Below are positions 17,885 to 53,985 of a stretch of 64,000 bases of DNA, in pieces. Within the stretch, counting starts at the first letter, position 1. Each line of letters begins with the position of its first letter. The notes below the pieces were generated by a model. That model was not told the origin of the DNA. It made no database searches and saw only the letters and a list, made by a program, of their open reading frames with translations. The position numbers and the translations under genes are program-made. Source of the DNA: an uncultured Clostridia bacterium (GTDB lineage: Bacteria; CAYTYR01; UBA6262); assembly GCA_964441745.1 (NCBI GenBank), contig CAYTYR010000003.1, positions 35,348 to 99,347 of the forward strand, given 5' to 3'.

Positions 17885-20535
17885 CTACAATAAATCTTCC
17901 ACTTTAGTCACCACTTTATACTCAACATCCTTAAATTCCTTAAAATGGGCTTCCCCGCACTTGATCTTCATTCTCTCTTCCGGATATAATTCATTCATTT
18001 CCCGGGTTGATTTCGTCTCCGCCACGAAATACAGCTTCTTCTCCCCTTTAAAGATCAAGGCCCAATCGGGGTTATAACTGCCCAAGGGCGTCTTTATCTT
18101 GAACCAGGCAGGGAGTTTTATGTAGAACTCAACATTATCGTTAGTCTCGCAATCACTGGCGAACCGTTTTTCCGGTTCGCTCATTGAATCTATAGAAATA
18201 TAATTAGCTATAGTTTTATCCTGCTTTGATACTTGATAGAGATTCTTTCTATATGCCTCCACCTCATTGTCTTCGAATAATCTCATCTCATATTCAATAC
18301 CATTGATCTTTTCATATTTTATCCCATCCACAATCATTTCGGCTAAGACATTCTTTATCTCCGCTGTCGCCATATCCATGAACATTTGAGGATTTCTCAA
18401 GATATCAACCAGCCGGCCAGAGCCTTTCAATATCCGCAAGATCGTTGATCGGGTTAATTCGGTTCTCGATTGTATATATCCCAGCACATCCGGGACATCA
18501 AACAAAGGATTTTCAACCTGAGTTATTCCCACACCCTTCTGCACTCCGGTTAATCCTTCTCTGACGACCTGCATTCCCGTTTTAACATACTTAATGATCG
18601 GCTTGCGCACCGCAGGCATATTCTTTATCTCTTTGACCGACGCTTCTATAAGCTTTTCAGTATCGAAATCAATATTATAAGTTGTTTTATGTTTTATTTT
18701 GTCCCATAGCTCCTTAAACTTCTCATCAAACTGGTAATTTTTTCTTAACCGCACTTTCACCCTTTCGTTCTTATTTCTTATCCTCTCCTTGAATTCGACT
18801 CCGCAATCCTCTTCCATTTCTTTCTGTAACTCTGCAGCGAATTCCTCGTAACTTTCATTGGCAATAACCGTCAACCTGTTAGTGTTCTTATCCTGGATCC
18901 TGTCGCCTTGCTGATCCACGCAAAGCCGCAATCCCCTGCCAATTTCCTGCCTCTTTTTCATCTCGGATCTCGTCTCGTTCAGAGTGCATATCTGGAAGAC
19001 ATTGGGGCTATCCCAGCCTTCTCTTAAAGCAGAATGACTGAATATAAATCTTAGAGGATTATTAATATCGAGAAGTCGTTCTTTATCCTTCATTATCAAC
19101 CTGTATGTATCATCATCTGCCAGGGTTTCCCTGGATTCAGAAGAATCTTTAAAGATCCCTTTTTTGTCCTGCGCGAAATAGCCGTTATGAACGACTTCAG
19201 ATTGAAAAGGGATAACTCCCTGATATTCTTTTTTCCCCGCTATTTCCTTGAATATTTCTTCAAACCAGAGGGCAAATTTTCCTTTCGCAGGGTTCCCCGC
19301 CTCATCATAACTGCGGTAGTTGGCTACCCTGTCTATAAAGATAAGCGAAAGGACTTTTATTCCTTTTTCTTTATATTTTTTCTCTTTCTGGAAGTGTTCT
19401 TCCACAGTCTTCCTGATCTGGACCTTCATAACTTCATCCAGCAGGCCGCCCCTCTGCTCTCCAACCGCCAGTATCTCTCCATTGGAGAGCTCAACCTTGC
19501 CTTCCCCCACGTCTATGGCATTAATAATATATCCTTCCCGGTAAAGCTCTCTTTTATTTGATTTTTCATACAAGTCATCTCCAACCTCAACATTCACTGT
19601 TTTCCTGATTATTCCATTCTCGCCAAGGGTATCCAAGCTTATTTTTGCCAGAGTCTTTGTTTTCTTGGCCTTAATATCTTCAACCTTCAGAAAAGCCTGA
19701 TTACTGCTATTCTCGGCAAAAATTGAATCAACTTCTATCTGTTTGACTAATCCCAGATCATAAGCTTTGACAGGATTAAGGCTGTAAACAAGGTTATACA
19801 GATTTGCGTGAGTAGCAGAATAGCGGAGAGTGCAGGCAGGATTCAGATTATCTATGGCCTTTTTCCTTATTTCCGTTTCCATGTTCTGAGGTTCATCAAC
19901 AATGACTATGGGATTCGTCGCCTGTATGAATTCTATCGGTTTCTTCCCGGTTAGTTTATCATTAAACTTATTAATAACATTCACGTCCTTGGCAAATGAA
20001 TCAATATTGATGACCAATATCTGAATGTTATTGTTTAGAGCGAAATTCCTTAAAAGGGATATTTTCCCCGGATCATACACGTTGAATGTCGCCGGTTGTT
20101 TCTCATACAAAGACTGGAAATGGTCATGGGTTATCTCAAGGTTCTTAATAACTCCTTCTCTTATGGCGATGCTGGGGACTACGATTATAAACTTTTTGAA
20201 TCCATAGCGTTTATTAAGCTCATATATGGTCCGCAAATATACATAAGTCTTTCCTGTACCTGTCTCCATTTCCACTGAGAAATTAAGACCTTGCAGGTAT
20301 TCCGCTTCTTTGAGCCCATTTTTCCGCTGAATTGCCTGAAGATTTGCTAATATTTGCGCTTCTTCCAAAACTATCCCATTTCCAACACCGTTTTCAGACA
20401 GCATATAGCCGCTATTGGGAGACAAAGAAAATTCATAATCGCTCTTATTTAAAGGCTGCCCCTCGAACAGGTCAACTATGGAGTTAATAGCGTCTATCTG
20501 ATACTGCTGGTTTGGATCAAAATGGAGTTTCATTA
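17885..20535 (-). CDS. res: Type III restriction enzyme, Res subunit (helicase-nuclease)
   Basis: Walker A METGTGKTYVY, motif II VIVDEPQNM, C-terminal nuclease region; real start is ATG at 20533-20535 (MKLHFDPNQQYQ) with AAGGA SD, not the upstream in-frame start at 20668. Confidence 0.9.
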
Positions 20536-20543
20536 TTATCCTT

Positions 20544-21275
20544 CTATTTAAACATCCGCAGATAATCTTTCTGTGTTTCCCTGACCATACGGGCAATAAG
20601 ATCAACAAAATCCCGATCGTTTCCGTCTCGCGCTGTTTCCAAAGAAGCGATATATTCCTGCCTGACAATGGGCGGGATTATGGTTATAACATAACCTTCC
20701 TGCATTAAAATAGTGTTCATCAGCAGCCGCGCCACTCTGCCGTTACCATCCAGGAAAGGATGAATAAAAACAAATTCTTTATGAGCCAATGCCGCGAACT
20801 CCACCGGGTGTTTTTGCCGGCGCAGTCTGCCTAATTTTGGCGGCAATCGTTTCATCAACACTGGTAATTCCGCCGGTAAGGGCAAGGGATACTTGGAACC
20901 TGTAATAATAGCTCTTACCTTCCGATACTCACCGGCATTTTCCCGATCTATTCGATAATAGAAAAGCCGGTGCAAATCTTTTATCCCGCGTTCGGTTACG
21001 GTTTTTTTCCTGGCCAGTTCATACATAAAGTCATAGGCTTCGCTATGCCCGGCTGCTTCGTAATGATCTCTTAATGGTTTACCGCCAATGGTAATACCGT
21101 CTTCAATAACCACCTTAGTCTCAGATTCTGTTAAGGAATTACCTTCAAGAGCGTTACTGGCATAGGTTAACCCTATGCGGAAATATTCTTTTGTTTGCTC
21201 TAACAAATGCTTATCCAAAGGCCGGCGCTTGTTTATCTCTGCCTGTAATTTATCTATTTCCTGATAAATAGTCAT
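20544..21275 (-). CDS. fic: Fic family protein
   Basis: 243 aa; canonical Fic motif HPFLDGNGRVARLL; AAGGAG SD 7 nt upstream; stop is 9 nt before the res ATG. Confidence 0.85.
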   Translation of the reverse strand: MTIYQEIDKLQAEINKRRPLDKHLLEQTKEYFRIGLTYASNALEGNSLTESETKVVIEDGITIGGKPLRDHYEAAGHSEAYDFMYELARKKTVTERGIKDLHRLFYYRIDRENAGEYRKVRAIITGSKYPLPLPAELPVLMKRLPPKLGRLRRQKHPVEFAALAHKEFVFIHPFLDGNGRVARLLMNTILMQEGYVITIIPPIVRQEYIASLETARDGNDRDFVDLIARMVRETQKDYLRMFK

Positions 21276-21288
21276 TACTTAGCTCCTT

Positions 21289-21336
21289 TCAAAGCTCTAT
21301 CTGATACTGCTGGTTTGGGTCAAAATGGAGTTTCAT
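21289..21336 (-). repeat. R2: duplicated copy of res 5' end forming a 15-codon mini-ORF (MKLHFDPNQQYQIEL)
   Basis: ATGAAACTCCATTTTGACCCAAACCAGCAGTATCAGATAG matches the real res start (20497-20535) with one mismatch by eye, then diverges into the Fic RBS. Confidence 0.7.
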
Positions 21337-21369
21337 TATTTATTTCTCCAACTATTTCCAATATTCTTA

Positions 21370-21398
21370 TTGACATCATGGCGCCAATGCTGTAATAT
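21370..21398 (+). promoter_or_regulatory. consensus-like sigma70 promoter (TTGACA-17 bp-TAATAT)
   Basis: TTGACA at 21370-21375, 17-bp spacer, TAATAT at 21393-21398, in a 400-bp noncoding gap and pointing antisense to the RM operon. Confidence 0.5.
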
Positions 21399-21404
21399 TA
21401 TATT

Positions 21405-21550
21405 AGGCAATAATGCTAATAATTTTGGATCGGGGTGTCCCCGGTCGGTATTAATGAGCGGTAAGTCCGTTGTGAATTGTTCCAAGTGTTCCCTTCCATA
21501 GGTTGGCTATAGCTTGGACGCAACAAGTTCACAGGGCGCGCTCATTTTTT
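21405..21550 (+). ncRNA. candidate structured small RNA of about 145 nt, antisense to the Type III RM operon
   Basis: downstream of the promoter; local hairpin GATCGGGG-TGT-CCCCGGTC (21427-21446); long-range pairing AATGAGCG (21452-21459) with CGCTCATT (21538-21545) followed by T-run 21545-21550; only coding potential is a 15-aa ORF without SD. Confidence 0.35.
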
Positions 21551-21672
21551 ATTTTATGGCAATTTTGCCTTCATTACCCTTCCCATCACATGACCATCAC
21601 ATAAGATTTGCTTTATTTATCAACACATTTTGCCATTTAACAAATTCACACAAACTTACAATCACATAAACC

Positions 21673-23130
21673 TTAAGACCATATTGGTATATACTTAGCA
21701 TACTTTCTCGATTTATTCTCTGGATCAAAATCTTTAATTAATCTTGCTTTGATGGTATCAGCTATTATTCTTGAAACTATTGAGTAATTCTTTTCATCTA
21801 TTTTAAATCTTTCTCTTAGAGACTGATTGGTCATGTTACTATTTGAGACATATTTTAAGCAACAATGTTGATAACATGCTCTTATTTTATCATCTTTATC
21901 CATCTGCTTTAGAGTTTTATAAGAATACATAATAACCTTCAGAAAATTATCTCCCTCAATGAATTTCGGCGCAGGTAATTGATACTCCTCTACTTTATCA
22001 ATAACTTTATCAATACCGCTCCCTCTTTCTTCACAAATACCTGCCCTCCGCATAAAAGAAGCAACTTTCTCATTTCTTGACTGAGGATGATGGTCAATAA
22101 ACCTTAAAGTGCTAATTAACGGCTTTCCCGGATTAGTAATTTCAATTCTATCGTTAAATATTTCAATCATAGGCCCAGTGCCAATTTCATTAAAATCCTG
22201 ATGGATTAATGCATTGGCTACTAATTCTCTTATTGCTATTTCAGGATACATTTTTACTTCTTTTCTAAATGCTCTTCCTATTTCTTCATTTGCTTGCAAG
22301 TTATCATTAATATAATCAATTAATCCCTCAAATCCATTGGCATATCCTTTAGCCCCAATTTGTTCTTTTTTTGTATGTAATCTGTCATTACCCTTATATA
22401 TAATAACCCTGATTGCCTTCCTATTTAATCTTTCAAAATACGAAAGATTATTGGCTATCAAAATAGTGCCCAAATTAGTAATACTATGGCTATTTATTTC
22501 TTTAAGAATAAATCTTTCTCCTTCTAAATGTTTTAAAATAGCACTTTTATCAGCGGGTAAATTCGACTTCAATATCCTAAAATAACCTGGATAATCTAAT
22601 AATTCAAGTATTTTATCTTCATCCAATTCTTTCGCGGCTATGTCTTTTTCAAAACTATACGCTAGTGTTTTATTCCATATTTTTCTCGCTTTTTCTGGCA
22701 AGTCCTTTAATTTCTTTTTATAACTGCCAACTCTAATATACTCTGCCCCTTTAAAACCTACTGGCGTATTATGAGTAGCATTGATTTCAAACATTACAAC
22801 AGGAACCCCTTCATACTCAAATTCATTAATTCTGAAATCAATTCTCGGACTTAGCAATCTAATTAACCAATTTTCTAATTCCTCATTACCGTTTTTTGTT
22901 TGGCTAGGCTTAAAATCTGTACCAACTACTTTATGGGTCTGATCTTCAATGCCAAAAACAAAATATCCATAGCTTCTATTATGTAAGCAAGCTGAATTAG
23001 ATAAAGCAGATATATACTCCCCAATTTCATCAAGTGAGCAACTTAAATTTTGCTTGAATTCCACCCACTCTGTTTCCTTTGGCAGCATTATAAGTTCTTT
23101 TAATTTATTCTTAAGATCATCTGTGTTCAT
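21673..23130 (-). CDS. AlbA_2 (Schlafen-like) plus HATPase_c_4 domain protein, putative nucleic-acid-binding ATPase/regulator
   Basis: 485 aa; N-terminal ETEWVEFKQ...FVFGIEDQTHKVVG resembles AlbA_2; C-terminal ALIHQDF...IEIFNDRIEITNPG resembles HATPase_c_4; start overlaps R1 mini-ORF stop (ATGA). Confidence 0.65.
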   Translation of the reverse strand: MNTDDLKNKLKELIMLPKETEWVEFKQNLSCSLDEIGEYISALSNSACLHNRSYGYFVFGIEDQTHKVVGTDFKPSQTKNGNEELENWLIRLLSPRIDFRINEFEYEGVPVVMFEINATHNTPVGFKGAEYIRVGSYKKKLKDLPEKARKIWNKTLAYSFEKDIAAKELDEDKILELLDYPGYFRILKSNLPADKSAILKHLEGERFILKEINSHSITNLGTILIANNLSYFERLNRKAIRVIIYKGNDRLHTKKEQIGAKGYANGFEGLIDYINDNLQANEEIGRAFRKEVKMYPEIAIRELVANALIHQDFNEIGTGPMIEIFNDRIEITNPGKPLISTLRFIDHHPQSRNEKVASFMRRAGICEERGSGIDKVIDKVEEYQLPAPKFIEGDNFLKVIMYSYKTLKQMDKDDKIRACYQHCCLKYVSNSNMTNQSLRERFKIDEKNYSIVSRIIADTIKARLIKDFDPENKSRKYAKYIPIWS

Positions 23131-23180
23131 TTTATTTCCTTTGATAGATATCGCTGGTTCGGATCAAAATGGAGCTTCAT
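23127..23180 (-). repeat. R1: diverged copy of res 5' end forming a 17-codon mini-ORF (MKLHFDPNQRYLSKEIK)
   Basis: ATGAAGCTCCATTTTGATCCGAACCAGCGATATCTATC resembles res start; its TGA overlaps the ATG of the 485-aa ORF. Confidence 0.65.
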
Positions 23181-23200
23181 GAAGCAGCCATATATTTTCC

Positions 23201-25084
23201 TTATATGGTTCTGAATTCTATTCCTGCGTCTTTCATTTGCAGGACGGTATTTGTTTTAAGCTTGTCATTGCCGGCAAATAAGGAATCCAGGCACAGGCAT
23301 TTGGCAGGCTTTTGTTTGACTATTTCCTTGATCAGCTTGCTGTTTACCTCAGATAGAATAACAACCATTTCGCCGTTATTTACCGTATAAATCGGCGCAC
23401 CGTCTATTTTTTCTTCTTTCGCGACCGTATTCAGGCCGTAACCGGTTTTCAGAAGTATTTCCCATAGCATATTGGTTTGTTTTGCCTTAGGTTTAACCGG
23501 ATACTCAAAAGCATCCATCTGCTTCTTAAGTTCAGCTTCCTCTGTTATGACATCATTTCGCCAAATCTTAAAATTGGATAGCTTCAGCTTATATACTTTG
23601 AATCCCAGGTCTATTTCTTTAGGCCGCTCTTCCTTGCCTATCTGTTTAATTGCTCTGCGAATTCTTTCTTTGGCGATATCTGCTATGGTTTTATACCCGG
23701 CCTTATAAGCTTCTGTTTCTGCTTCAGTTTTTTCCGGAAGCTGGACGCAGATAAACTTTCTATTCCCCCCATCTTCCTTGTTTAAATCTAAAACAGCATG
23801 AGCAATAGTTCCGGACCCAGCAAAAAAATCAAGAATAATATCATCAGATTCAATACCGGTTATTAATTCTATTAGTTTTTTCATTAATCTTACAGGTTTA
23901 GGTGTATCAAAATACGATTCACCATTAAAAATTTCTTTAATCTCTCGTTTTGACTCCTGATTATCTCCAACTATATCTCTTGTCCATAGAGTTATGGGAG
24001 TAACTGAAGTTTTTACCTCTGATAAAAATCTTTTTTGTCTCGGAATATTGTCTCCATACTCTCCAAACCATATACGATTATCTTTTAGAAGCTCACTAAA
24101 TTTTCTCTCACTAACAACCCAACATCTTCCTTTTGTCGGAAAAACTTTCCTTCCGCTTGGTAAAATTATGGGATATAGTTTTTCCTTGATTTCTGGCCCC
24201 ACCGTTAAATCACCTGATGACCAAGGGCCTCTTAAATCATTATCAGGATTATGATATCTTGAATTAGTTTCTTCTGTTCTTTTTAACCCCAGCACACCTA
24301 GTTTTTCTACATTTTTTGCATAAACTAAAATATAATCATGACTCGTTGAAAATGTGGTTTTTAAATTAATGGGCGAAAATGCTTTCTCCCAAATTATACT
24401 TGCCACAAAATTCTCTTCTCCGAATATCTCATTCATTAACAGCCTGAGATTATGGACTTCATTGTCATCTATGGAAACAAAAATAACTCCGTCTTCACAG
24501 AGCAGATTTCTGGCGAGGAACAGTCTTGGATACATCATGGAAAGCCAATTGGAATGGAAATGGCCATTTTCTTTGTTATTTTTTCTAAATAGCCCTTCCT
24601 TCAACAGATAGCCTTCTTCGTCCTTTTCCCCTATTCTTTTCAGATAGTCTTCTTTGGACTCGGAAAACCGGTCAGGATAGATAAAATTGTCATTGCCGGT
24701 ATTGTAGGGCGGATCGATATAGATCATCTTGATCTTGCCATAGTAGGCTTTCTGCAGGACTTTCAAGACTTCGAGGTTTTCCCCTTCAATGAATACATTG
24801 CCTGTTTTATCAAAATTGACGGATTCTTCAGGGCAAGGAGCCAATGTAGCAGTTGTAGGAGTTTGCAGGACCTTAAAAGCTTCGGACTTACCGGCCCAAT
24901 TAAGGACATATCGCTCATTCTCCAGGGATAGCTCTTCACCTAAAGTAAGCTTGAGCTTCTCCTGATCTATTTTCCCTTCGCTGAATACCTCTGGAAAAAG
25001 TTCTTTTAGTTTCTTTACTTTATCCTTTTTCACATCTACCGATTTTCCATCCATTCCTGTCTCCTCTATTACAAACTTATTCAA
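23201..25084 (-). CDS. mod: Type III R-M Mod subunit, N6-adenine DNA methyltransferase
   Basis: 627 aa; DPPY motif in MIYIDPPYNTG; AdoMet-binding DFFAGSGT; overlaps upstream Fic gene by 8 nt. Confidence 0.9.
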   Translation of the reverse strand: MNKFVIEETGMDGKSVDVKKDKVKKLKELFPEVFSEGKIDQEKLKLTLGEELSLENERYVLNWAGKSEAFKVLQTPTTATLAPCPEESVNFDKTGNVFIEGENLEVLKVLQKAYYGKIKMIYIDPPYNTGNDNFIYPDRFSESKEDYLKRIGEKDEEGYLLKEGLFRKNNKENGHFHSNWLSMMYPRLFLARNLLCEDGVIFVSIDDNEVHNLRLLMNEIFGEENFVASIIWEKAFSPINLKTTFSTSHDYILVYAKNVEKLGVLGLKRTEETNSRYHNPDNDLRGPWSSGDLTVGPEIKEKLYPIILPSGRKVFPTKGRCWVVSERKFSELLKDNRIWFGEYGDNIPRQKRFLSEVKTSVTPITLWTRDIVGDNQESKREIKEIFNGESYFDTPKPVRLMKKLIELITGIESDDIILDFFAGSGTIAHAVLDLNKEDGGNRKFICVQLPEKTEAETEAYKAGYKTIADIAKERIRRAIKQIGKEERPKEIDLGFKVYKLKLSNFKIWRNDVITEEAELKKQMDAFEYPVKPKAKQTNMLWEILLKTGYGLNTVAKEEKIDGAPIYTVNNGEMVVILSEVNSKLIKEIVKQKPAKCLCLDSLFAGNDKLKTNTVLQMKDAGIEFRTI

Positions 25085-26198
25085 AAAGTTTCACATAACC
25101 TTGATAAGCATATACTCGGTTTCTCCTTTGCCCCGTTAATTCTTTTAAAATATCTAATTTAAGCAGTTTTTTAGTCAAGACAATAGCATTGGGATTGGCT
25201 AATCCTGTTATTTGTTCAATATCTTTTATTCTTACCAAGGGCTTTTTATATAATGCGTTAAGCAAAACCATAGCTTTTTCTGAGCGGCCCATGCTTACCA
25301 CTTTCTCTATATCCCTCTGCCTCAGCTTATGGATTTTTCTGGCAGTTTCTACCGCTCTCTCGGCAGTGTCGATTACTCCTGATAGGAAAAATATAAGCCA
25401 TCCTTCAAGATCATCTTTCTCCCGAGCGGTATCAAGCTTATCATAGTAATCTTGCCTGAAACGCTTAAAAAACTCTGATATACACAAAAGTGGTTTATGG
25501 AGAATCTTCTGCTGGCATAAATAAAAAGTAATGAGCAATCTCCCAATTCTGCCGTTTCCATCCAGAAAAGGATGTATCGTTTCAAACTGGTAATGTATTA
25601 ATCCAATTTTAATAAGTACTGGCAAAGGCGCCACATCATGTATAAAACTCTCTAAATTTCCCATTAAGGCTAATACTTCATGCGCTGGGGGTGGAACAAA
25701 AGAGGCGTTTTGCAAAGTCACTCCCCCTATCCAATTCTGGGAGGTTCGAAATTCACCCGGATATTTTCCTTCTCCTCTGACTCCTTTTAGGAGAATGGCA
25801 TGTATTTCTTTAATGAGCCGCAAGGAAAGAGGAAGTGTTTCAAGGCGTTCCAGCCCGTAATCCATAGCTTTTATATAATTCAATATTTCTTCAACATCTT
25901 TATGTATTTCAAAATCTTCCAATTTTGCTTCTGCTTTGAGAACATCAGAAAAAGTAGCTTTGGTGCCTTCTATTTGACTGGAAAGAGCCGCCTCCTTCTT
26001 TATATACATAAAAATAAAGAAATTAACATCTGGCAATACATCAGCAATCCCATCCAATCGACCTAAAGCCAGATCCGCTTTCGAAAGAAGATCCTGCAAT
26101 AAATAATCTTGCTTAATATTAAAAGGCAAGCGGTTAGGTATAAAAGCCTTATATTGCAAATCTCCTTTTAACTGATTAACATAATTCCCTGTTCTCAT
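25077..26198 (-). CDS. fic: Fic family protein with C-terminal winged-helix-like domain
   Basis: 373 aa; Fic motif HPFLDGNGRIGRLL; first gene of the RM operon. Confidence 0.85.
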   Translation of the reverse strand: MRTGNYVNQLKGDLQYKAFIPNRLPFNIKQDYLLQDLLSKADLALGRLDGIADVLPDVNFFIFMYIKKEAALSSQIEGTKATFSDVLKAEAKLEDFEIHKDVEEILNYIKAMDYGLERLETLPLSLRLIKEIHAILLKGVRGEGKYPGEFRTSQNWIGGVTLQNASFVPPPAHEVLALMGNLESFIHDVAPLPVLIKIGLIHYQFETIHPFLDGNGRIGRLLITFYLCQQKILHKPLLCISEFFKRFRQDYYDKLDTAREKDDLEGWLIFFLSGVIDTAERAVETARKIHKLRQRDIEKVVSMGRSEKAMVLLNALYKKPLVRIKDIEQITGLANPNAIVLTKKLLKLDILKELTGQRRNRVYAYQGYVKLFE

Positions 26199-26204
26199 AA
26201 CACC

Positions 26205-26335
26205 TCAACCGTAGATAAGATTTTTAATAACTACGATATCATTATAATTCGTAGATAGTAATTTGTCAAGTTTTTTTAATCGTAGATTAGACTAAAATTA
26301 TCTATGATAATTATTAATATCATAGATTATAGCTA
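26205..26335 (-). promoter_or_regulatory. promoter/operator region of the Fic-mod operon with iterated YRTAGATW repeats
   Basis: at least six copies in both orientations (CGTAGATAAG, CTACGATATC, CGTAGATAGT, CGTAGATTAG, TATCTATGATA, CATAGATTAT) within about 130 bp. Confidence 0.45.
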
Positions 26336-26388
26336 AGTATTATCATATATTGGCATGTAAGTTAGTAGGTAGTGAAGCAAGGGGAAAA

Positions 26389-27066
26389 TTACTTGTTTTT
26401 GCCTTTACAGGCTTTTACGCAGATACCGCAGATGGCTTGTGATACATACTTTTGTTTTTGGAATTCTTTTAAAGCCGCGCAGCAGGCCTGATGGTCGAAA
26501 TCCTGCGATTTTTCCCTGATCGCTTTGGCGGGACACACCGCGATACAGGCGCGGCAGTCAGCGCAATCAGCAGCCAATGCTTTGTCCACAGCTAACGGCA
26601 TATCGGTTAAGATAGTCACCAGCCTTAACTGGGCGCCATAAGATAATGTGACCAGCAGATTATTGCGGCCGATCCAGCCTAATCCTCCCGCCACCGCAAT
26701 TTTTTTATGAGACAAGTGCCCTTTCTGATTTTGCCAGTCGATTACTTGCGAAGCCGGTATAGGCATGGCTTTGTATCCCTGCTCCTGGATCAAAGCCGCC
26801 AGTTTCAGCGCTGATTGGTCCAGGAAATTATTGACCTGCCGGTAATGGTTAAAATAAAGCGGGGTGGGACGGTCACTGATCTCTGCCAAAACCTGGCTCT
26901 GCAAGGGGAAGCCCAGGGTAATGCCATAATTTAAGTCTTTAATCACTTCCGGCGGAAAAAGAAACTCTGCCTTCAGGGTACCAATATCAGCTACGCCGAA
27001 GAGACGAAAACCAAGGCCCAGGGCCTGGTCTTTGAGCTGGTCATATTGTTCTTTTGGCTGCCCCAT
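26389..27066 (-). CDS. 4Fe-4S protein, epoxyqueuosine reductase (QueG)-like, short form
   Basis: 225 aa; GGLGWIGRNNLL and CADCRACIAVCP motifs recall QueG; shorter than canonical QueG. Confidence 0.5.
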   Translation of the reverse strand: MGQPKEQYDQLKDQALGLGFRLFGVADIGTLKAEFLFPPEVIKDLNYGITLGFPLQSQVLAEISDRPTPLYFNHYRQVNNFLDQSALKLAALIQEQGYKAMPIPASQVIDWQNQKGHLSHKKIAVAGGLGWIGRNNLLVTLSYGAQLRLVTILTDMPLAVDKALAADCADCRACIAVCPAKAIREKSQDFDHQACCAALKEFQKQKYVSQAICGICVKACKGKNK

Positions 27067-38542: not shown

Positions 38543-39778
38543 TCACTTATTCATCTCCGCGGTCAAGAGGATAGCTTCAGCTATCTGTTTCATGCTCTTG
38601 CGGGTATTCATGCTTTGCTGCTGGATTATTTTAAAGGCCTCAGCTTCATTCATCGTGTATTTTTGCATGAGGACCCCCTTGGCTTTTTCCACTACTTTCC
38701 TGGTTTCCAGCGCCTCTTCCATTTCTGCGGCTTTATCGAACAATTTGGTGTTTTCTATGGAAATAGCTGCCTGGTTAGCAACCGATTGCAATACTTTGAT
38801 CTCTTCTTCACTAAAAGAATGTTCATGGGCAGTGTAGCTGTTAATCACCCCGATCACCTTATCTTTGATCATCATCGGGACAGAAAGCATACTAATAATG
38901 CCTTCCTTGCGGGCGACTTCCGGGTATTTATAGGCTGGTTCCCGGGTGACATTCAATACCATCACCGGCTTCTTTTCTTTCACTGCCTGACCGCTGACGC
39001 TTTCTCCCACCTTTAAATTTGGTTTTTTAATATAATCAGGGCTCAGGGATTGGGTGGCTTTGATCTCCAGCTCTTGCTTCTGGTCATCCAGCAGCATAAT
39101 TGAACATATTTTTGAGTTCATCATTTCCGCGGTCATAGTGACTACCAACTGCAGGATCTCCTGCAAATATCTCCCCGAAACGATAGTGGTAGAGATCCTG
39201 GAAATCGTATCCAGGCGCCGTGATTTTTTGCTGGATTCTATATCTAACCTGGCTTTTTCGATGGCTGATCCGACCTGGGTTCCGATCACTTCCATTAATT
39301 TCTTATCCCGGTCCGAATAGCGGTGGGCTTGGCGATGCCGTATGTTTACCACCCCAATAACTTCATTCTTGGCTATAATCGGCACAGCCAGGATCGCCTG
39401 AAACTTATCTTCCGGTAATCCCTGGAAAAACTTGTAACGCTGGTCTTTCATGGCGTCTTTATTAATCGCGACAATTTTTTTCTGCTTAGCCGCCGTACCC
39501 GCAATACCCTCACCAATATTGAGCCGCACCAAGCCGACAGTCTTAGGATGCAGGGGTTTCGCGGCCCGCAGGACCAAGTGTTCTTTGGCTTCATCAAAAA
39601 GGAATAGATGACAGGCATCGCTTTTGGTTATGGCCGCAGCTACTTCCAGGATCTTGCCTAGTAATTCATCGAGATTGGTGATACTGGAAATAACCTCGCT
39701 GATCCGGTAAAGGACCGCGGCTTCTTCTTTTTTCTCTTTCAGCTGTTTTTGCAGTTCTTTAATAGTAGTTTTAGTCAT
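38543..39778 (-). CDS. GAF-GAF-ANTAR regulator (RNA-binding antiterminator-type output)
   Basis: 411 aa; two GAF-like modules and a C-terminal ANTAR-like helix segment (LETRKVVEKAKGVLMQKYTMNEAEAFKII). Confidence 0.7.
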   Translation of the reverse strand: MTKTTIKELQKQLKEKKEEAAVLYRISEVISSITNLDELLGKILEVAAAITKSDACHLFLFDEAKEHLVLRAAKPLHPKTVGLVRLNIGEGIAGTAAKQKKIVAINKDAMKDQRYKFFQGLPEDKFQAILAVPIIAKNEVIGVVNIRHRQAHRYSDRDKKLMEVIGTQVGSAIEKARLDIESSKKSRRLDTISRISTTIVSGRYLQEILQLVVTMTAEMMNSKICSIMLLDDQKQELEIKATQSLSPDYIKKPNLKVGESVSGQAVKEKKPVMVLNVTREPAYKYPEVARKEGIISMLSVPMMIKDKVIGVINSYTAHEHSFSEEEIKVLQSVANQAAISIENTKLFDKAAEMEEALETRKVVEKAKGVLMQKYTMNEAEAFKIIQQQSMNTRKSMKQIAEAILLTAEMNK

Positions 39779-39906
39779 ATTATTATTATATCATAACTGC
39801 CGACCATAGTAAATGCCAAAATATTATTTAACTTACCTTTTACCTAAGCGTAATATGCCCTTATTATACATTCGTTATACTTATTGTAATAAAAAAGGAG
39901 AAAATT

Positions 39907-40614
39907 ATGAAAAACAAAGCAGATTTACACATCCATACTTACTACAGTGACGGGCTGGACAGTCCCGAACAAGTGGTCAGGACAGCTTCGATCAAAGAAC
40001 TGGCCGTCATCGCGATCTGTGACCATAACCGCATCAAAGGCGCCCAAAAAGCGCAGAATTTCGCCCAGAGTCATACCTATATGGGAGTAGAAGTAATCAT
40101 TGGGGAAGAGATCACTACTTTGAACGGTCATATTCTTGGCTTATTCCTGCATGAACGTATTAAGCCTGGCTTAAGCGCTGAAGAGACCATCGAAAAGATC
40201 CATGCCCAAGACGGGTTGGCCATATTACCGCACCCTTTCCATTTTTATATAGGTAAAAAACGGGGCAATGTCTCTGCCGGCAAGCTTATCGACACTTTAA
40301 AAATAGACGGGATTGAAGTTATCTGTAACTCCAGTATAGCCAGCTGGTGGGCCAATATGAAAGCTGCCTTGAAGAATGCCTCCAGTATGCATACGGCCAT
40401 TGGCTCAAGTGACGCCCATGATTCCCATTTTATCGGGCACGGGTATACCTTGTTCCCAGGGAAAACCGCGGCGGAGCTGCGCACAGCTATAGAAAATAAA
40501 AAATGCACCGCCCACTATCATTTCTGGTCTTTAAAAGATCTTTGGCGGTCGCTGCACACTGGCTTGCAGAATTTAGCCAGGTATTATTTTAATTCCGGCA
40601 TAGAGACAGAATAA
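39907..40614 (+). CDS. PHP-domain metal-dependent phosphoesterase
   Basis: 235 aa; N-terminal DLHIHTYYSDG and later CDHN, HPF histidine motifs; AAGGAG SD. Confidence 0.75.
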   Translation: MKNKADLHIHTYYSDGLDSPEQVVRTASIKELAVIAICDHNRIKGAQKAQNFAQSHTYMGVEVIIGEEITTLNGHILGLFLHERIKPGLSAEETIEKIHAQDGLAILPHPFHFYIGKKRGNVSAGKLIDTLKIDGIEVICNSSIASWWANMKAALKNASSMHTAIGSSDAHDSHFIGHGYTLFPGKTAAELRTAIENKKCTAHYHFWSLKDLWRSLHTGLQNLARYYFNSGIETE

Positions 40615-41385: not shown

Positions 41386-43152
41386 ATGCAGATCAATCTT
41401 TCCACCAAACTTATCCTTAATTACCTTCTCTTAGTAGCGCTGGTTTTCTCGTGTACTACTTTTATTATCCTGCATAAATTAAATTATGAATCAAAAGTCC
41501 AGCTCGAAAACGAACTGGTAACAAAAGCGCAGTTAATTTCCGAATTTATCCCCGCGCCGATCATTAAACAGAAAAACACAAACCAGATCCAGCCCCTGGT
41601 CATGATCGCTAAACAAAAGGCCCAAGCCCGGATCACTATCATCGCCAAAGACGGCCAGGTACTGGGTGACTCTGAATCCGATCCCGGGGTCATGGAAAAC
41701 CACCGTACCCGCCCGGAAGTAATAGATGCGTTGCAGGGCAAAACAGGAGTCAGCACCCGCTATAGCTATACCCTGCAAAAAAACATGCTCTATATCGCGC
41801 TGCCAGTCAAAGCTATCCGGGGAGAAATCAGCGGGATCATCAGGGTCGCTTTGCCCATCACCACGGTTAATACTTTGACCGTCAATATCTTGCCAAATCT
41901 CTGGATCGGCATTATCGTAGCCCTGGTCTTGACTATTATCCTGGGATATGTCTCTGCTTATGTCATTACTAAACCGATCCGCCAGATCAATGACCTGACC
42001 CAGCAGGGGATCAAAGGCAATTGGTCCCAGAAAATACCAGTCAGCGCCCAGGATGAAATAGGGAGTTTGGCCAGGTCATTAAATCTCTTGTTCCGGCAGG
42101 TCCAGGAGAATATGGAAGCTATTAGAAATGAACAAAACAAGATCACGGCCATAATTTCCAGCATGAGTGAGGGAGTGATCGCCTGTGCTACAGACAGCCG
42201 GATCTTATTAATCAATAAATCCATCGAGAATATTTTTAGTGTGGCCGCGGCGGATTGCCAGGGCAAGATGCTGTTGGAAGCAATACGTAATAATGAGCTG
42301 GATGAAATATTAAATCTGACCCTGCAATCCGGACAGGCGCAACAAAGTGAATTGTCAATTCTTGTGCCCATACAAAAGATCTTCCAGATATATGCCAGTC
42401 CGCTTAAAAAAGAAGACCAGACCATCGGAGCCGTCCTGGTCATGCATGATATCACCGAATTGAAACATTTGGAAAATGTGCGCAAAGAATTCATTTCCAA
42501 TGTTTCCCATGAATTAAAAACTCCTCTGACCTCTATTAAAGGTTTTATCGAAACCCTGCTGGACGGCGCCTTGGAAGATAAAAATAATAGCCGGCGTTTC
42601 CTGACTATTATCCAGGATCATGCCGACCGGCTGGGCAAGCTCATTAATGGTATCCTGGAATTATCCAAACTGGAATCCAAGGAAATAAAATTGGATATCA
42701 AACCAGCAGCCCTGCCAGAGCTCATTAGGAAAACAGTAGAAACCTTTACCCCGCAACTAGTTAAGAGCAAAGTTACCTGCTCGGTAGATATTAAGGAAAC
42801 TCTTCCCCTAGTCCAGGCAGACCAGGATAAAATTGCCCAGGTACTGATCAACCTGCTGGACAATGCCATTAAATTCAATAAAGAGAATGGCAGTATCACC
42901 GTAACTGCCGCAATCCAGGATGATTCTATTAAAATAAGCATCAGCGACACCGGCCTGGGCATCCCGGAAAAAGATCTGCCCCGCATTTTTGAAAGATTTT
43001 ACCGCGTAGACAAAGCCCGCTCCCGCGACCTGGGAGGAAGTGGACTGGGATTATCTATAGTAAAGCATATAATCGAAGCCCATCAGGGCCAGGTCGGCGT
43101 AGAAAGCATCGAAGGAAACGGCTCCACTTTCTGGTTCACCCTGCCTAGGTAA
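41386..43152 (+). CDS. phoR: PhoR-like sensor histidine kinase
   Basis: 588 aa; two TM segments, PAS-like region, H-box SNVSHELKTPLTSI, G-boxes DTGLGIP and GSGLGLSIVK. Confidence 0.8.
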   Translation: MQINLSTKLILNYLLLVALVFSCTTFIILHKLNYESKVQLENELVTKAQLISEFIPAPIIKQKNTNQIQPLVMIAKQKAQARITIIAKDGQVLGDSESDPGVMENHRTRPEVIDALQGKTGVSTRYSYTLQKNMLYIALPVKAIRGEISGIIRVALPITTVNTLTVNILPNLWIGIIVALVLTIILGYVSAYVITKPIRQINDLTQQGIKGNWSQKIPVSAQDEIGSLARSLNLLFRQVQENMEAIRNEQNKITAIISSMSEGVIACATDSRILLINKSIENIFSVAAADCQGKMLLEAIRNNELDEILNLTLQSGQAQQSELSILVPIQKIFQIYASPLKKEDQTIGAVLVMHDITELKHLENVRKEFISNVSHELKTPLTSIKGFIETLLDGALEDKNNSRRFLTIIQDHADRLGKLINGILELSKLESKEIKLDIKPAALPELIRKTVETFTPQLVKSKVTCSVDIKETLPLVQADQDKIAQVLINLLDNAIKFNKENGSITVTAAIQDDSIKISISDTGLGIPEKDLPRIFERFYRVDKARSRDLGGSGLGLSIVKHIIEAHQGQVGVESIEGNGSTFWFTLPR

Positions 43153-43180
43153 CCCGGCAAAATCAAAATTTTAAACTTGC

Positions 43181-43219
43181 AACCCCTGTTTACTACAATA
43201 AACAGGGGTTTTCCGTTTT
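43181..43219 (+). terminator. rho-independent terminator after phoR
   Basis: CCCCTGTTTA-CTACAA-TAAACAGGGG hairpin followed by TTTTCCGTTTT. Confidence 0.65.
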
Positions 43220-43325
43220 ACGCAGATTTTACTTATTGCTAATTCATTCTTATTCCCTATCCTTTATATTTATCCCAGATAAAACAGCAGAGGAGGAAAT
43301 CCCGGGAGGCCCGGGATAAGAACTT

Positions 43326-43712
43326 ATGAACAAGAAGATCATTTTAATCGTTGAGGACGACCTGCCTATTATTGAATTGCTTACCTACAACCTGAACAAA
43401 GAAGGATTCAATGTCATTGCCCTGCCCAACGGGGAGACAGTGTTGGAGCTGGCCGGTAAGGTCAAGCCTGACCTGATCATCCTGGACCTGATGATGCCGG
43501 GACTAAATGGCCATGAAATCCTGTATCTGCTTAAACGCAATATGCAGTTATACCAAATCCCGGTCATTATTATCAGCGCTTTGATCAATAAAGATGTCAT
43601 TAACAAATCTTTTGAACTAAAAGCGGCAGAGTATGTCGCCAAGCCTTTTAATGTCGGTGAATTGATTAAAATAGTGCGCCGGGTACTGTCCCAGGAAGCG
43701 GTTGCGGTTTAA
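43326..43712 (+). CDS. stand-alone response regulator receiver domain
   Basis: 128 aa; IVEDD, DLIILDLMMP, conserved K in AKPF. Confidence 0.8.
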   Translation: MNKKIILIVEDDLPIIELLTYNLNKEGFNVIALPNGETVLELAGKVKPDLIILDLMMPGLNGHEILYLLKRNMQLYQIPVIIISALINKDVINKSFELKAAEYVAKPFNVGELIKIVRRVLSQEAVAV

Positions 43713-43829
43713 CTTACATTTTACTTGATATTCATTTCACCCTAACATCCTTTATTTATAATTAACTCATACATAATGCAACTATGCCTCACGAACAACC
43801 TAAAAAAGGAGGTGTCCAGTAAATGTTCA

Positions 43830-43866
43830 TTTTGTAATCGTTTTTAGAAATCTGTGTAATCATTTT
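43830..43866. promoter_or_regulatory. GTAATC direct-repeat element upstream of porin gene (candidate Pho box)
   Basis: TTTTGTAATCGTTTTTAGAAATCTGTGTAATCATTTT; two TGTAATC units 22 bp apart; reverse complement of the pstS-upstream motif. Confidence 0.4.
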
Positions 43867-43882
43867 AATAAAGGAGGAAGAC

Positions 43883-44950
43883 ATGTTGAAAGCCGTAAAA
43901 ACAGCAGTTGTTTGTATGTTACTGTTAAACTTGAGCCAAATAGCCTTTGCCGCTGCCGGAGATTGGACCTTTAGTGGAACCAACTGGTTAAGGACACGGG
44001 TAATAAGCAAGGACCTGCAAGGTCCGCTGAAGGATACTGATAAAACTACTGATTCCGGATTTTCGGTAGATCGGGGTTATGTCCGGTACGCCTACCAGTT
44101 CACTGATACGATCAAAGGACAATGGACGGCGGATTTCTTTTCCGCTAAGACCGGTGATTTCAAGGATGGCGCCGGGATTAAGCTTAAAGAAAGCTATGTG
44201 GACCTGCCGATAGGGATCCCGGAAGGAAAATTGACATTCGGTTTACAGAAGAACTATCTCGGCTTGATCTATGATTATGATTACCGTATTATCGAGAAGG
44301 AATTTATAGACCGGAATGGTATTGATGCTTCAGCAGACAATGGCCTGGTGCTGAACGGCTACTTCCCCATGGGCTATGGCGCTTATGCTGTCGGATTATA
44401 TAATGGTGAGGGGTATAAGAAAGCCCTTAGTCCTGATGTCAATACCGAGTTGGCTGTGGTGGCTGATGCCAGGTTTATTCTTATTCCCGGCTTGACAGTG
44501 GGCGCCAGCTATAAGCGCGACTTGCAGGGAACTGTAGCCGCCACCGGCAACAATGCTTATAATACCAATAACCTGATGGTCGGCATGATCCGCGCCGCGT
44601 ACGGACAATTTGATCTGTGGGGCGAATACATTGACCAAAAGATCGATACTTACAGCACGACTACTAACACCTTCACGGATATTAAAAAGAAAGGCTTCTC
44701 CCTTATGCCCTCGTACCAGGTCAATGCCGACTGGACTATCCTGGCCAGGTACGATAGCTGGGATCCTAACGCCGATTCTACTAATGATAAAGTCAATACG
44801 ATAATAGCCGGTGTAAATTATGCTATAACCAAAGGCGTTTTACTGCAATTGAATTACCAAAAAGATGATCCGGAAAACAGCGCCACCGCTTCAACAACTC
44901 AATACCTGGCGCAGTTAGCCTGGAGTTTTTCGAGAGTGTTTGTACAATAG
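43883..44950 (+). CDS. putative outer-membrane beta-barrel porin (Pho-regulon associated)
   Basis: 355 aa; signal peptide ending AFAAAG; alternating Tyr/Gly-rich beta-strand-like composition; GGAGGAAG SD. Confidence 0.5.
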   Translation: MLKAVKTAVVCMLLLNLSQIAFAAAGDWTFSGTNWLRTRVISKDLQGPLKDTDKTTDSGFSVDRGYVRYAYQFTDTIKGQWTADFFSAKTGDFKDGAGIKLKESYVDLPIGIPEGKLTFGLQKNYLGLIYDYDYRIIEKEFIDRNGIDASADNGLVLNGYFPMGYGAYAVGLYNGEGYKKALSPDVNTELAVVADARFILIPGLTVGASYKRDLQGTVAATGNNAYNTNNLMVGMIRAAYGQFDLWGEYIDQKIDTYSTTTNTFTDIKKKGFSLMPSYQVNADWTILARYDSWDPNADSTNDKVNTIIAGVNYAITKGVLLQLNYQKDDPENSATASTTQYLAQLAWSFSRVFVQ

Positions 44951-50992: not shown

Positions 50993-51751
50993 ATGGCAAA
51001 CATTACTATCAAAGCAAATAATTTCAGCCACTATTTCGGCGCTAACCAAACGCTGAAAAATATAAATCTGGATGTTTACCAAAATGAGATATTGGGCATC
51101 ATCGGCCCTGCCGGCAGCGGCAAATCCACTTTCCTGCGGGCGCTTAACCGGCTCAATGACCTGACCCCGAAATCACGGATAGAAGGATCACTATATATTG
51201 ACGGCCAGGATATCTATACGCCGGAAACGAGCGTGATCGAACTGCGGCGTAAATTAGGCATGGTCTTTGCCACACCGGTACCCCTGCCCCGCTCAATTTA
51301 CGAAAACGTGGCTTTCGGGCCTAGAATGGCCGGATTAGCTGGTAAAAACCATTTAAAAGAACTAGTTACTGATTGTTTGATTAAATCAACCTTATATGAA
51401 GAAGTCAAAGACCGGCTTGATTCCAGCGGCCAAAAACTTTCCGGTGGGCAGCAGCAGCGGCTGTGTATCGCCCGCATCCTGGCCTTGAAGCCTGAATTCA
51501 TCCTACTGGATGAACCGTGTTCGGGATTGGACCCGATTTCAACCATGAAGATCGAGGAATCACTGCGCAATCTAAAAAAGGATTATACTATTATCCTGGT
51601 AACCAATAACACCAAGCAGGCCGCCCGGGTAGCCGACCGGACGGCTTTTTTCCTGAGCGGAGAGCTGATCGAAGTCGGACCGACAGACAAGATCTTCACC
51701 ACTCCGGCCGACCAGCGGACCAATGATTATATATCGGGAAGGTTCGGATAG
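50993..51751 (+). CDS. pstB: phosphate ABC transporter ATP-binding protein PstB, second copy
   Basis: Walker A GPAGSGKST, signature LSGGQQQRL, Walker B ILLDEP. Confidence 0.9.
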   Translation: MANITIKANNFSHYFGANQTLKNINLDVYQNEILGIIGPAGSGKSTFLRALNRLNDLTPKSRIEGSLYIDGQDIYTPETSVIELRRKLGMVFATPVPLPRSIYENVAFGPRMAGLAGKNHLKELVTDCLIKSTLYEEVKDRLDSSGQKLSGGQQQRLCIARILALKPEFILLDEPCSGLDPISTMKIEESLRNLKKDYTIILVTNNTKQAARVADRTAFFLSGELIEVGPTDKIFTTPADQRTNDYISGRFG

Positions 51752-51757
51752 AAAGAC

Positions 51758-51791
51758 GATTACATAGATTAAAATGCAGATTACACAGATT
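51758..51791 (+). promoter_or_regulatory. tandem GATTACA(C/T)AGATT boxes upstream of third pstB
   Basis: GATTACATAGATT at 51758-51770 and GATTACACAGATT at 51779-51791, 21 bp apart. Confidence 0.45.
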
Positions 51792-51805
51792 TTTTAAAGG
51801 TGTCT

Positions 51806-52558
51806 ATGAGTATAATAGAAGTAAATAATTTATCATTATTTTACGGTAATTTTCAGGCGTTGAAAAATATTAACCTGAATATTGAAAAACAGAAGATCAC
51901 GGCTTTAATTGGGCCTTCCGGCTGCGGCAAATCCACCTTCCTGAGATGCCTCAATCGGATGAATGACCTGATTGAAGACGTACGCATAACCGGATCAGTG
52001 AAAATAGCGGATAATGACATTTATCATAACGGATACGATTTATTAGCCTTACGTAAGAATGTCGGCATGGTCTTCCAAAGACCAAACCCTTTTCCCTTAA
52101 GCATTTATGACAATGTCGTTTATGGTTTGAGGGTACATGGTATTCTGGACAATAAAATAATGGAAGAAAAATTGCAATGGAGCTTGGAATCAGTGCACCT
52201 CTGGGATGAGGTAAAAGACAAACTTGATACTAATGCTCTCGCTCTTTCCGGTGAACAGCAGCAGCGGCTCTGTATTGCCCGGCTGGCGGTAGTGGAACCG
52301 AAAGTCCTGCTGATGGATGAACCTTGTTCGGCATTAGACCCTATATCCACCGCAAAAATTGAAGATTTGATGTATGAACTTAAAAAGCAATATACGATAA
52401 TTATCGTAACGCACAATATGCAGCAGGCCGCCAGGGTATCTGAATATACCGGATACTTTTTATTAGGGGACTTGGTAGAGTTTGGTGAAACCACCCAGAT
52501 CTTTACCAGTCCGAAAGATAGCAGGACAGAAGATTATCTGACGGGAAGATTTGGCTAA
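51806..52558 (+). CDS. pstB: phosphate ABC transporter ATP-binding protein PstB, third copy
   Basis: Walker [10 protein letters not shown]; signature reads LSGEQQQRL (Gly to Glu in the second Gly); ATG at 51806, ORF-track start 51800 is GTG. Confidence 0.85.
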
Positions 52559-53565: not shown

Positions 53566-53985
53566 GTGAAAAATGTAGCCAAATGGCTGTTGGCAGGGAT
53601 AGTGGTAGCTGCTGTTTCCTATTTTATCAATGCCCTCTTTACCATTCTCTTTAAGAATTTCTATGCCCAAACACCTGCGTTGATCAAACCCTTAAGTAAT
53701 GTCTGGATGGTCCAAACCCTGCTGGGTAACTTTTCCAGCGGGCTTATCTACGCCTTAATGTTTACAGTCTTGCAGCATGGTATTCCTGGCAAGGGGATCA
53801 CTAAAGGATTTTTTCTGGGGTTATTGCTGTGGGCTATTACTGTTCCGCCGCTCTTGATCACCTATAATACCAATATCGATATCAAACTTATTCTCTCGTG
53901 GCTGTTAACCGGGCTTATTGCTACCCCGCTCGCTTGCATCGCGGTTGTTATTATCTATGAAAAGGTCACTGATCGGGAGAAGTAA
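53566..53985 (+). CDS. hypothetical integral membrane protein
   Basis: 139 aa, about four hydrophobic helices; GTG start with AGGAGG SD 7 nt upstream. Confidence 0.5.
   Translation: MKNVAKWLLAGIVVAAVSYFINALFTILFKNFYAQTPALIKPLSNVWMVQTLLGNFSSGLIYALMFTVLQHGIPGKGITKGFFLGLLLWAITVPPLLITYNTNIDIKLILSWLLTGLIATPLACIAVVIIYEKVTDREK

Follow-up and report, generated by a model that had tools for sequence, protein, structure and literature searches.

Six phased repeats upstream of a SoFic-type Fic gene are probably its self-repression operator and here head a type III restriction-modification cluster

In the genome of an uncultured Clostridia bacterium, a short spacer in front of a gene for a Fic protein is packed with repeats in both orientations, and the Fic gene is followed on the same strand by genes of a type III restriction-modification (R-M) system, which raises the question of what these repeats do and to which of the genes they belong. 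We analysed a stretch of 64,000 nucleotides around this spacer (contig CAYTYR010000003.1 of assembly GCA_964441745.1), called the window throughout, for which an earlier note had suggested that the repeats form an autoregulatory operator of the Fic protein that times restriction against modification. Our analysis supports the operator part of this suggestion, through the position of the repeats at a promoter, their conservation in eight other loci and the precedent of the Fic proteins CccR and SoFic, and finds no support for the restriction-timing part. The genes of the cluster are co-oriented and are given here by their positions in the window.

25077-26198, minus strand: SoFic-type class II Fic gene, 373 aa, whose product is the candidate binder of the repeats (Pfam, PADLOC and PDB-chain alignment).
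23201-25054, minus strand, ATG at 25054: type III Mod methyltransferase gene (Pfam N6_N4_Mtase; PADLOC MTase_III, E 5.8e-216).
21673-23130, minus strand: AlbA_2/HATPase_c_4 protein gene (Pfam).
20544-21275, minus strand: short Fic protein gene (Pfam).
17885-20533, minus strand, true ATG at 20533: type III Res gene, the last of the co-oriented cluster (Pfam ResIII and RE_endonuc; PADLOC REase_III, E 2.7e-301).

The GC content of this cluster is 38%, compared with 44.5% in the rest of the window. The spacer (26199-26388, 190 bp) is bounded by the start codon of the Fic gene (26198) and the stop of the gene upstream (26389), and on its far side come a small Fe-S (Fer4) protein, an ORF without an assigned family and mnmG. 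A comparison of the spacer with Rfam gave no match to a structured-RNA family.

Between 26206 and 26331, the spacer holds six copies of the word TWATCTAYG as read on the strand of the gene, four in one orientation and two in the other, in agreement with the original description of at least six short repeats in both orientations within about 130 bp upstream of the Fic gene. This word is the opposite-strand reading of YRTAGATW, the form in which the repeat was first reported, and five of the six sites match YRTAGATW exactly (at 26210, 26250, 26281, 26321 and, in reverse, 26299), while the sixth (26229-26236, reverse) has one mismatch. On the plus strand, the four forward copies read CGTAGAT or CATAGAT from these same positions, with a reverse copy at 26300-26306. 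The sites are numbered below outwards from the gene; coordinates are those of 15-nt matrix windows, centres are given relative to the Fic ATG, with + for the orientation of the gene and - for the reverse, and the scores come from a matrix built from other loci.

26206-26220, minus strand: O1, TCTTATCTACGGTTG, centre -16 (+), immediately 5' of the ribosome-binding site, 16.2 bits.
26225-26239, plus strand, inverted relative to the gene: O2, TAATAACTACGATAT, centre -33 (-), covering the expected start of transcription (near 26234) a little 3' of the -10 box, 11.2 bits.
26246-26260, minus strand: O3, TACTATCTACGAATT, centre -56 (+), within the -35/-10 spacer, 13.8 bits.
26277-26291, minus strand: O4, TCTAATCTACGATTA, centre -87 (+), 5' of the -35 box, 16.8 bits, the top match of the window.
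26296-26310, plus strand, inverted relative to the gene: O5, AATTATCTATGATAA, centre -104 (-), 16.4 bits.
26317-26331, minus strand: O6, TATAATCTATGATAT, centre -127 (+), 15.6 bits.
26241-26269, minus strand: sigma-70-type promoter of the Fic gene, with TTGACA at 26269-26264, a 17-nt spacer and TATAAT at 26246-26241, matching 12 of 12 consensus positions.

The array consists of a three-site module present in two copies with a period of 71 bp, so that neighbouring centres follow one another at steps of 23, 17, 31, 23 and 17 bp. When the two modules were aligned by eye, agreement was about 81% over the site positions and about 29%, the chance level, over the spacers, arguing that sites and spacing have been kept and that the two modules are not a recent duplication. 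Sites of the same orientation stand 40, 31 and 40 bp apart (+ sites) or 71 bp apart (- sites), corresponding to approximately 4, 3, 4 and 7 helical turns. As a description of the single site, we also considered a 9-bp palindrome, ATC-RTA-GAT; it was rejected since the GAT arm is not kept in homologues, which makes the asymmetric word TWATCTAYG the better description.

We then asked how far such a cluster could be accidental, given that the earlier note had allowed for the motif being a common, simple AT-rich word. Across the whole window, the 8-mer YRTAGATW is indeed not notable, with 23 occurrences observed against 16.7 expected. A 15-nt weight matrix derived from 24 sites of five other loci, with no sequence of the window included, was run over both strands of the 64 kb; O4, O5, O1 and O6 came out as the four best of approximately 128,000 positions, and six of the 14 matches scoring at least 11 bits were O1-O6. 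At the same threshold, neither 200 first-order Markov simulations of the window nor 5000 simulations with the composition of the AT-rich spacer ever gave more than two matches within a 130-bp span. These ranks and simulations confirm that the six-repeat cluster is real and strongly non-random, and dispose of an AT-rich accident within the 64-kb window. The scan found no second cluster of the motif in the window. Isolated matches outside the array lie at 53949-53963 and 51759-51773 (15.4 and 14.4 bits), at the 3' end of an ORF (53566-53985) and in the 48-bp gap between two ORFs (50993-51751 and 51800-52558), respectively; being single sites, they are probably due to chance, though they could be extra targets.

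Relative to the promoter, O1 falls in the leader, O2 past the -10 box and O3 between the two boxes, and O4-O6 all lie upstream of the -35 box. We consider it likely that the adjoining SoFic-type Fic protein uses the six TWATCTAYG sites as its operator array and through them shuts off its own promoter. The anatomy and layout of the sites, the promoter and the way these features are conserved alongside the gene (see below) are direct observations; that the window Fic binds the sites and represses transcription from them is what we infer from its homologues.

The protein itself has the complete architecture of a SoFic, C-terminal domain included. Pfam recognises Fic_N (2.7e-26) and Fic (8.7e-22), the translation contains the catalytic motif HxFx(D/E)GNGRxxR as HPFLDGNGRIGR, and the class II inhibitory helix motif (S/T)xxxE(G/N) is present in the N-terminal part as SSQIEG. 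The PADLOC model of SoFic, a single-gene anti-phage defence system (PADLOC catalogue; Millman et al. 2022), matched over its full length (residues 15-372, E 1.5e-119), and in a phmmer comparison residues 41-370 aligned to the SoFic chains of the PDB (3EQX, 9TCL and others, E 1.4e-35), an alignment that appears to take in the C-terminal winged-helix domain and bears out the C-terminal winged-helix-like extension proposed from the translation alone. The window protein hence combines the Fic_N and Fic core, the class II helix and the C-terminal domain with promoter-overlapping sites kept with the gene, the features of a SoFic/CccR-type protein.

Self-repression by such proteins has precedent. In Yersinia pseudotuberculosis, a DNase I footprint, EMSA and lacZ fusions have established that the class II Fic toxin CccR (YPK_0951), which carries an HTH domain at its C-terminus, represses its own promoter, by a factor of 3.3; the footprint covers AGATAATCAT-N26-ATGATAATCT near the -35 and -10 boxes, and binding requires the C-terminal domain and the dimer, in which the recognition helices are approximately 70 Å apart (PMC9755527). 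CccR and the window Fic share the order of N-terminal inhibitory helix, Fic core and C-terminal DNA-binding domain, as well as an inverted-repeat operator beside their own -35 and -10 boxes, with binding being dimer-dependent in CccR. The CccR half-site, ATGATWATCT, even includes TWATCT, the start of the window word, which may be a coincidence. CccR is nevertheless a distant relative, a T6SS effector with a wider regulon that is not encoded beside R-M genes, and its footprinted operator is one pair of 10-mers with 26 bp between them, as opposed to six sites at steps of 17, 23 and 31 bp.

For the SoFic of Shewanella oneidensis (SO_4266; PDB 3EQX, 9TCL), the dimer, though not the monomer, binds the 100 bp in front of its own start codon, a random fragment of matched composition is not bound, and no motif was defined (bioRxiv 10.64898/2026.07.09.737422). 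In the S. oneidensis promoter given in Table S2 of that work, we found five WATCGACAT repeats in both orientations within approximately 140 bp of the ATG, at steps of 31, 39, 10 and 30 bp, three of the five lying in the bound fragment F1. Here too the likeness has limits, in that the DNA word is another one, the match of the window Fic to the solved chains is a distant one, and no R-M genes follow the SoFic gene in S. oneidensis. We additionally noticed four copies of TGTATAGATA in fragment F3 (approximately 210-270 bp upstream), at exact 20-bp steps and in alternating orientation; this array has TAGATA in common with the window word, and F3 is not the fragment that SoFic prefers.

Taken with the layout of the sites, these precedents suggest how the array might work. 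The Fic protein would dimerise via its N-terminal helix, and the two C-terminal winged-helix domains of the dimer would read oppositely oriented half-sites. The centres of opposite-orientation neighbours lie 17 and 23 bp from each other, approximately 58 and 78 Å, which brackets the 70 Å of CccR; the footprinted half-sites of CccR, on the other hand, stand 36 bp apart, and a + - + triplet gives no neat split into symmetric dimer sites. Several dimers would align along one face of the DNA, because sites of the same orientation are separated by whole helical turns. Occupied O3, O2 and O1, in the promoter spacer, over the start and in the leader, would block RNA polymerase, while O4-O6, being on the same helix face, would probably add cooperativity. 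The resulting negative feedback would hold the toxic AMP-transferase at a low, buffered level. A comparable logic is known from AbiEi-type toxin-antitoxin and abortive-infection modules, where a toxic defence protein is likewise kept low through repeated operator sites and cooperative binding, with the difference that in the window no separate antitoxin gene follows SoFic and toxin and repressor domain are parts of one protein. In Coxiella CbFic2, AMPylation is stimulated by DNA binding (PMC10628234).

To see with which gene the array is conserved, we turned to relatives. A homology search scored at least 8000 candidates, all at E <= 1e-30, and returned many proteins 66-71% identical to the window Fic, and the contigs of eight of them (66-70% identical) were taken for comparison.

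L161: glutamate dehydrogenase upstream and a dCache sensor downstream.
L165: a Tad protein and large proteins without an assigned family as neighbours.
L167: a HicAB pair as neighbours.
L169: type III mod with an IS-element interruption upstream and a Res gene 3 nt downstream.
L170: AbiEii and RadC as neighbours.
L173: housekeeping genes of a candidate-phyla-type bacterium as neighbours.
L179: a helicase upstream.
L183: RadC upstream and an HsdR-like fragment downstream.

The sole gene common to these loci is SoFic, and the GC content of the flanks ranges from 19 to 54% in the five loci measured (L161, L165, L167, L169 and L170). At the positions equivalent to O2 and O3, TWATCTAYG is present in all eight. 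An O1 equivalent occurs in seven (L179 being the exception), as does an O4 equivalent scoring at least 8 bits (here the exception is L173); O5 equivalents occur in L173 and L183, once differing annotated start codons are corrected for, and an O6 equivalent in L170. The promoter is kept in six of the eight loci (TTGAC...TATACT or TACACT) and is degenerate in L169 and L170. When the window was aligned with L161, L165 and L167, the invariant columns lay almost entirely in the site cores, including ATCGTAG at the O2 position, in TTGAC and TATA.T, and in the start codon. Since eight unrelated neighbourhoods share nothing except SoFic, together with the array, the operator is a feature of SoFic, which in the window happens to head an R-M cluster. 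Most likely, the control mechanism is the one already known from CccR and, as far as binding goes, from SoFic, found here also in front of a type III R-M cluster.

A different view would make the array a controller of the R-M system: with SoFic in the part of a C protein, it would stage the methyltransferase against the endonuclease when the cluster arrives in a new host. This would fit the shared orientation of SoFic, mod, the two accessory genes and res, the 22-nt SoFic-mod gap without a terminator-like site, and the restriction-type gene found close behind SoFic in two other loci (res after 3 nt in L169, the HsdR-like fragment after 53 nt in L183). As the earlier note had observed, the locus has no classical C protein gene: there is no small HTH controller ORF (about 70-100 aa) in 17885-26400, and Pfam finds no HTH-only protein among the cluster genes. 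As in C-protein systems, a regulator heading an R-M cluster would, by our prediction, bind repeats in its own promoter; however, the window has neither a small Xre-type C protein nor a C-box, the candidate regulator being a 373-aa enzyme, and the SoFic operator occurs mostly away from R-M genes. L161, L165, L167, L170 and L173 carry the same operator before SoFic with no R-M gene within 4-5 kb, a Mod homologue lies near SoFic in only 2 of the 172 loci listed, and the R-M neighbours in L169 and L183 look degraded, the mod of L169 being interrupted by an IS element and the gene in L183 reduced to a fragment of 318 aa. Moreover, with mod and res both 3' of one promoter, the operator alone cannot stagger their timing, and there is no sign of a switch from activation to repression; CccR is a simple repressor, for which the activator-then-repressor behaviour of C proteins is not described (PMC9755527). 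We therefore regard an R-M controller as decidedly unlikely, and the proposal that the repeats time restriction against modification lacks support.

The sites could instead be read by another protein, such as the AlbA_2/HATPase_c_4 protein, Mod recognising its own target, or a host transcription factor. AlbA_2/HATPase_c_4 proteins are commonly annotated as regulators, and some methyltransferases regulate their own promoters. Yet motif and layout are present in loci without AlbA_2 and Mod genes, so that these two binders were rejected, and they persist in hosts whose flanking GC content differs as widely as given above; the lack of a second motif cluster in the 64-kb window likewise speaks against a binder other than Fic, which we consider very improbable. 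Less credible still is a role of the repeats in replication, as iterons or as clustered DnaA boxes, an idea that draws on the proximity of mnmG/gidA, 1.2 kb away, and on the partial likeness of TTATCTACG to TTATCCACA, the best sites matching the DnaA box at 7 of 9 positions when read by eye. DnaA boxes, and with them an oriC, were rejected because no box with at most one mismatch exists in 26199-26388. No replication initiator was found among the genes scanned around the spacer, which is flanked by SoFic and the Fer4 protein; the orientation of the sites alternates, they end in a conserved YG where the DnaA box has CA, and the motif travels with SoFic to loci away from mnmG. With no replication gene and no DnaA boxes in the spacer, the term "iteron-like" that had been applied to the repeats is misleading, and we give this explanation almost no weight. 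As separate observations on the surroundings, mnmG lies at 27.5-29.4 kb, long ORFs change from nearly all minus to nearly all plus strand at 39.8-39.9 kb (about 39778-39907), and the fall in cumulative GC skew ends at approximately 42-44 kb (42000-44000); a replication origin could be near, although no DnaA-box cluster was seen.

Under the preferred reading, an autorepression operator of SoFic, the genes behind SoFic may still be affected. The mod ATG (25054) follows the SoFic stop by 22 nt and has its own ribosome-binding site, GAGGAG, and no terminator-like site is predicted at the junction (25055-25076). Such a gap makes read-through likely, so mod is probably co-transcribed with SoFic, and the feedback would probably limit transcription into the type III R-M genes too. 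It is plausible that mod and res are both co-transcribed from the SoFic promoter, though internal promoters would fit into the wider gaps in front of the AlbA_2 gene (70 bp) and the short Fic gene (397 bp). For the window, the operator reading explains the conspicuous repeat cluster and singles out the place from which a five-gene defence operon is likely to be driven and controlled; should the R-M genes indeed be driven from the SoFic promoter, a toxin-type defence protein would be regulating a restriction system.

More distant relatives show how far the arrangement extends. Two collection scans yielded at least 160 loci, with relatives 42-52% identical among the matches listed. TWATCTAYG was found upstream of SoFic in none of these 42-52% identical relatives among the matches listed; other 9-mers, however, take its place, with at least four copies in both orientations in 66 of 147 testable upstream regions of the listed relatives, as compared to 3 of 147 dinucleotide shuffles. 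The words are clade-specific, for example TTATTCAAG, AAAGTAAAC, TATTAAAGG, AAATTGAAATA and TTTACTTAG. Of the 191 spacings between consecutive same-orientation sites in 70 distinct arrays, 100 measured 40 or 41 bp; other peaks lay at 30/31, 50/51, 71 and 82 bp, all integer helical turns, and the same-orientation spacings of the window agree with this pattern. One array, in L021, has neighbour steps of 23, 17, 30, 24 and 17 bp, nearly those of the window.

The same DNA word tends to go with the same start of the putative recognition helix: GL(K/A)NPNA with TTATCTAYG, SYQAAS with TTATTCAAG, and KSAN or KAAN with AAAGTAAA. In a pairwise comparison that controlled for identity of the Fic core, covariation of helix and word reached P = 0.08 below 55% core identity, and at 55-100% core identity the word was tracked by the whole C-terminal domain, not by helix 3 specifically, for which reason we do not count the covariation as independent proof. 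A full-text literature search found no description of a family-wide phased SoFic array, and what is new relative to the two experimental papers is that self-binding of SoFic-type proteins accompanies a conserved, helically phased multi-site array whose word varies by clade. The array words provide ready operator predictions for hundreds of SoFic loci, and the clade-specific words are a natural data set for how the SoFic winged helix reads DNA.

A more far-reaching proposal starts from the window, where the operator-promoter of SoFic would have become the master control of a composite operon (SoFic, type III Mod, AlbA_2/HATPase_c_4, second Fic and Res), so that an abortive-infection toxin reading its own phased six-site array would set how strongly a restriction system is expressed. 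Occupancy of the DNA might also gate the AMP-transferase activity of this toxin, by analogy with Coxiella CbFic2. More broadly, the phased 40/41-bp arrays with clade-specific words would constitute an undescribed recognition code of the whole SoFic family. We offer these ideas together only tentatively, as a possibility that is on balance doubtful.

Several further features of these loci were noted. In L169 (138-6554), a RhuM-Fic gene comes first, then a type III mod that an IS1595 element interrupts, then SoFic preceded by its operator, and finally, 3 nt on, a ResIII gene. In L183 (4001-6138), the 318-aa fragment, of HsdR_N/ResIII type, lies 53 nt past SoFic. In L170 (6137-6394), and also in L171 and L172, an ORF of 85 aa without a Pfam match begins 3 nt past the SoFic stop. 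The SoFic of E. coli has a small downstream antitoxin, AS1 (PMC12249575), of which this ORF may be the counterpart; the window has no such ORF after SoFic, and mod stands in that place.

Within the window cluster, the first 28 nt of res (ATGAARCTCCATTTTGAYCCRAACCAGC, encoding MKLHFDPNQ) are present three times on the minus strand, at 20506-20533, 21309-21336 and 23153-23180, where none would be expected by chance. One of the three copies is the real Res start, and the truncated ones lie just 5' of the short Fic gene and the AlbA_2/HATPase_c_4 gene. Both of these genes have the appearance of cassettes that entered at the mod-res junction, each behind a copy of the res 5' end. Finally, the 397-bp gap between the AlbA_2 and short Fic genes holds, antisense to the operon, a full-length Rfam match to the DUF3800-V RNA (RF02964) at 21451-21548 on the plus strand (71.5 bits where the gathering score is 37.4, E 3.3e-14), and a promoter-like TTGACA-17-TAATAT lies on the same strand at 21370-21398, approximately 50 nt 5' of this match.
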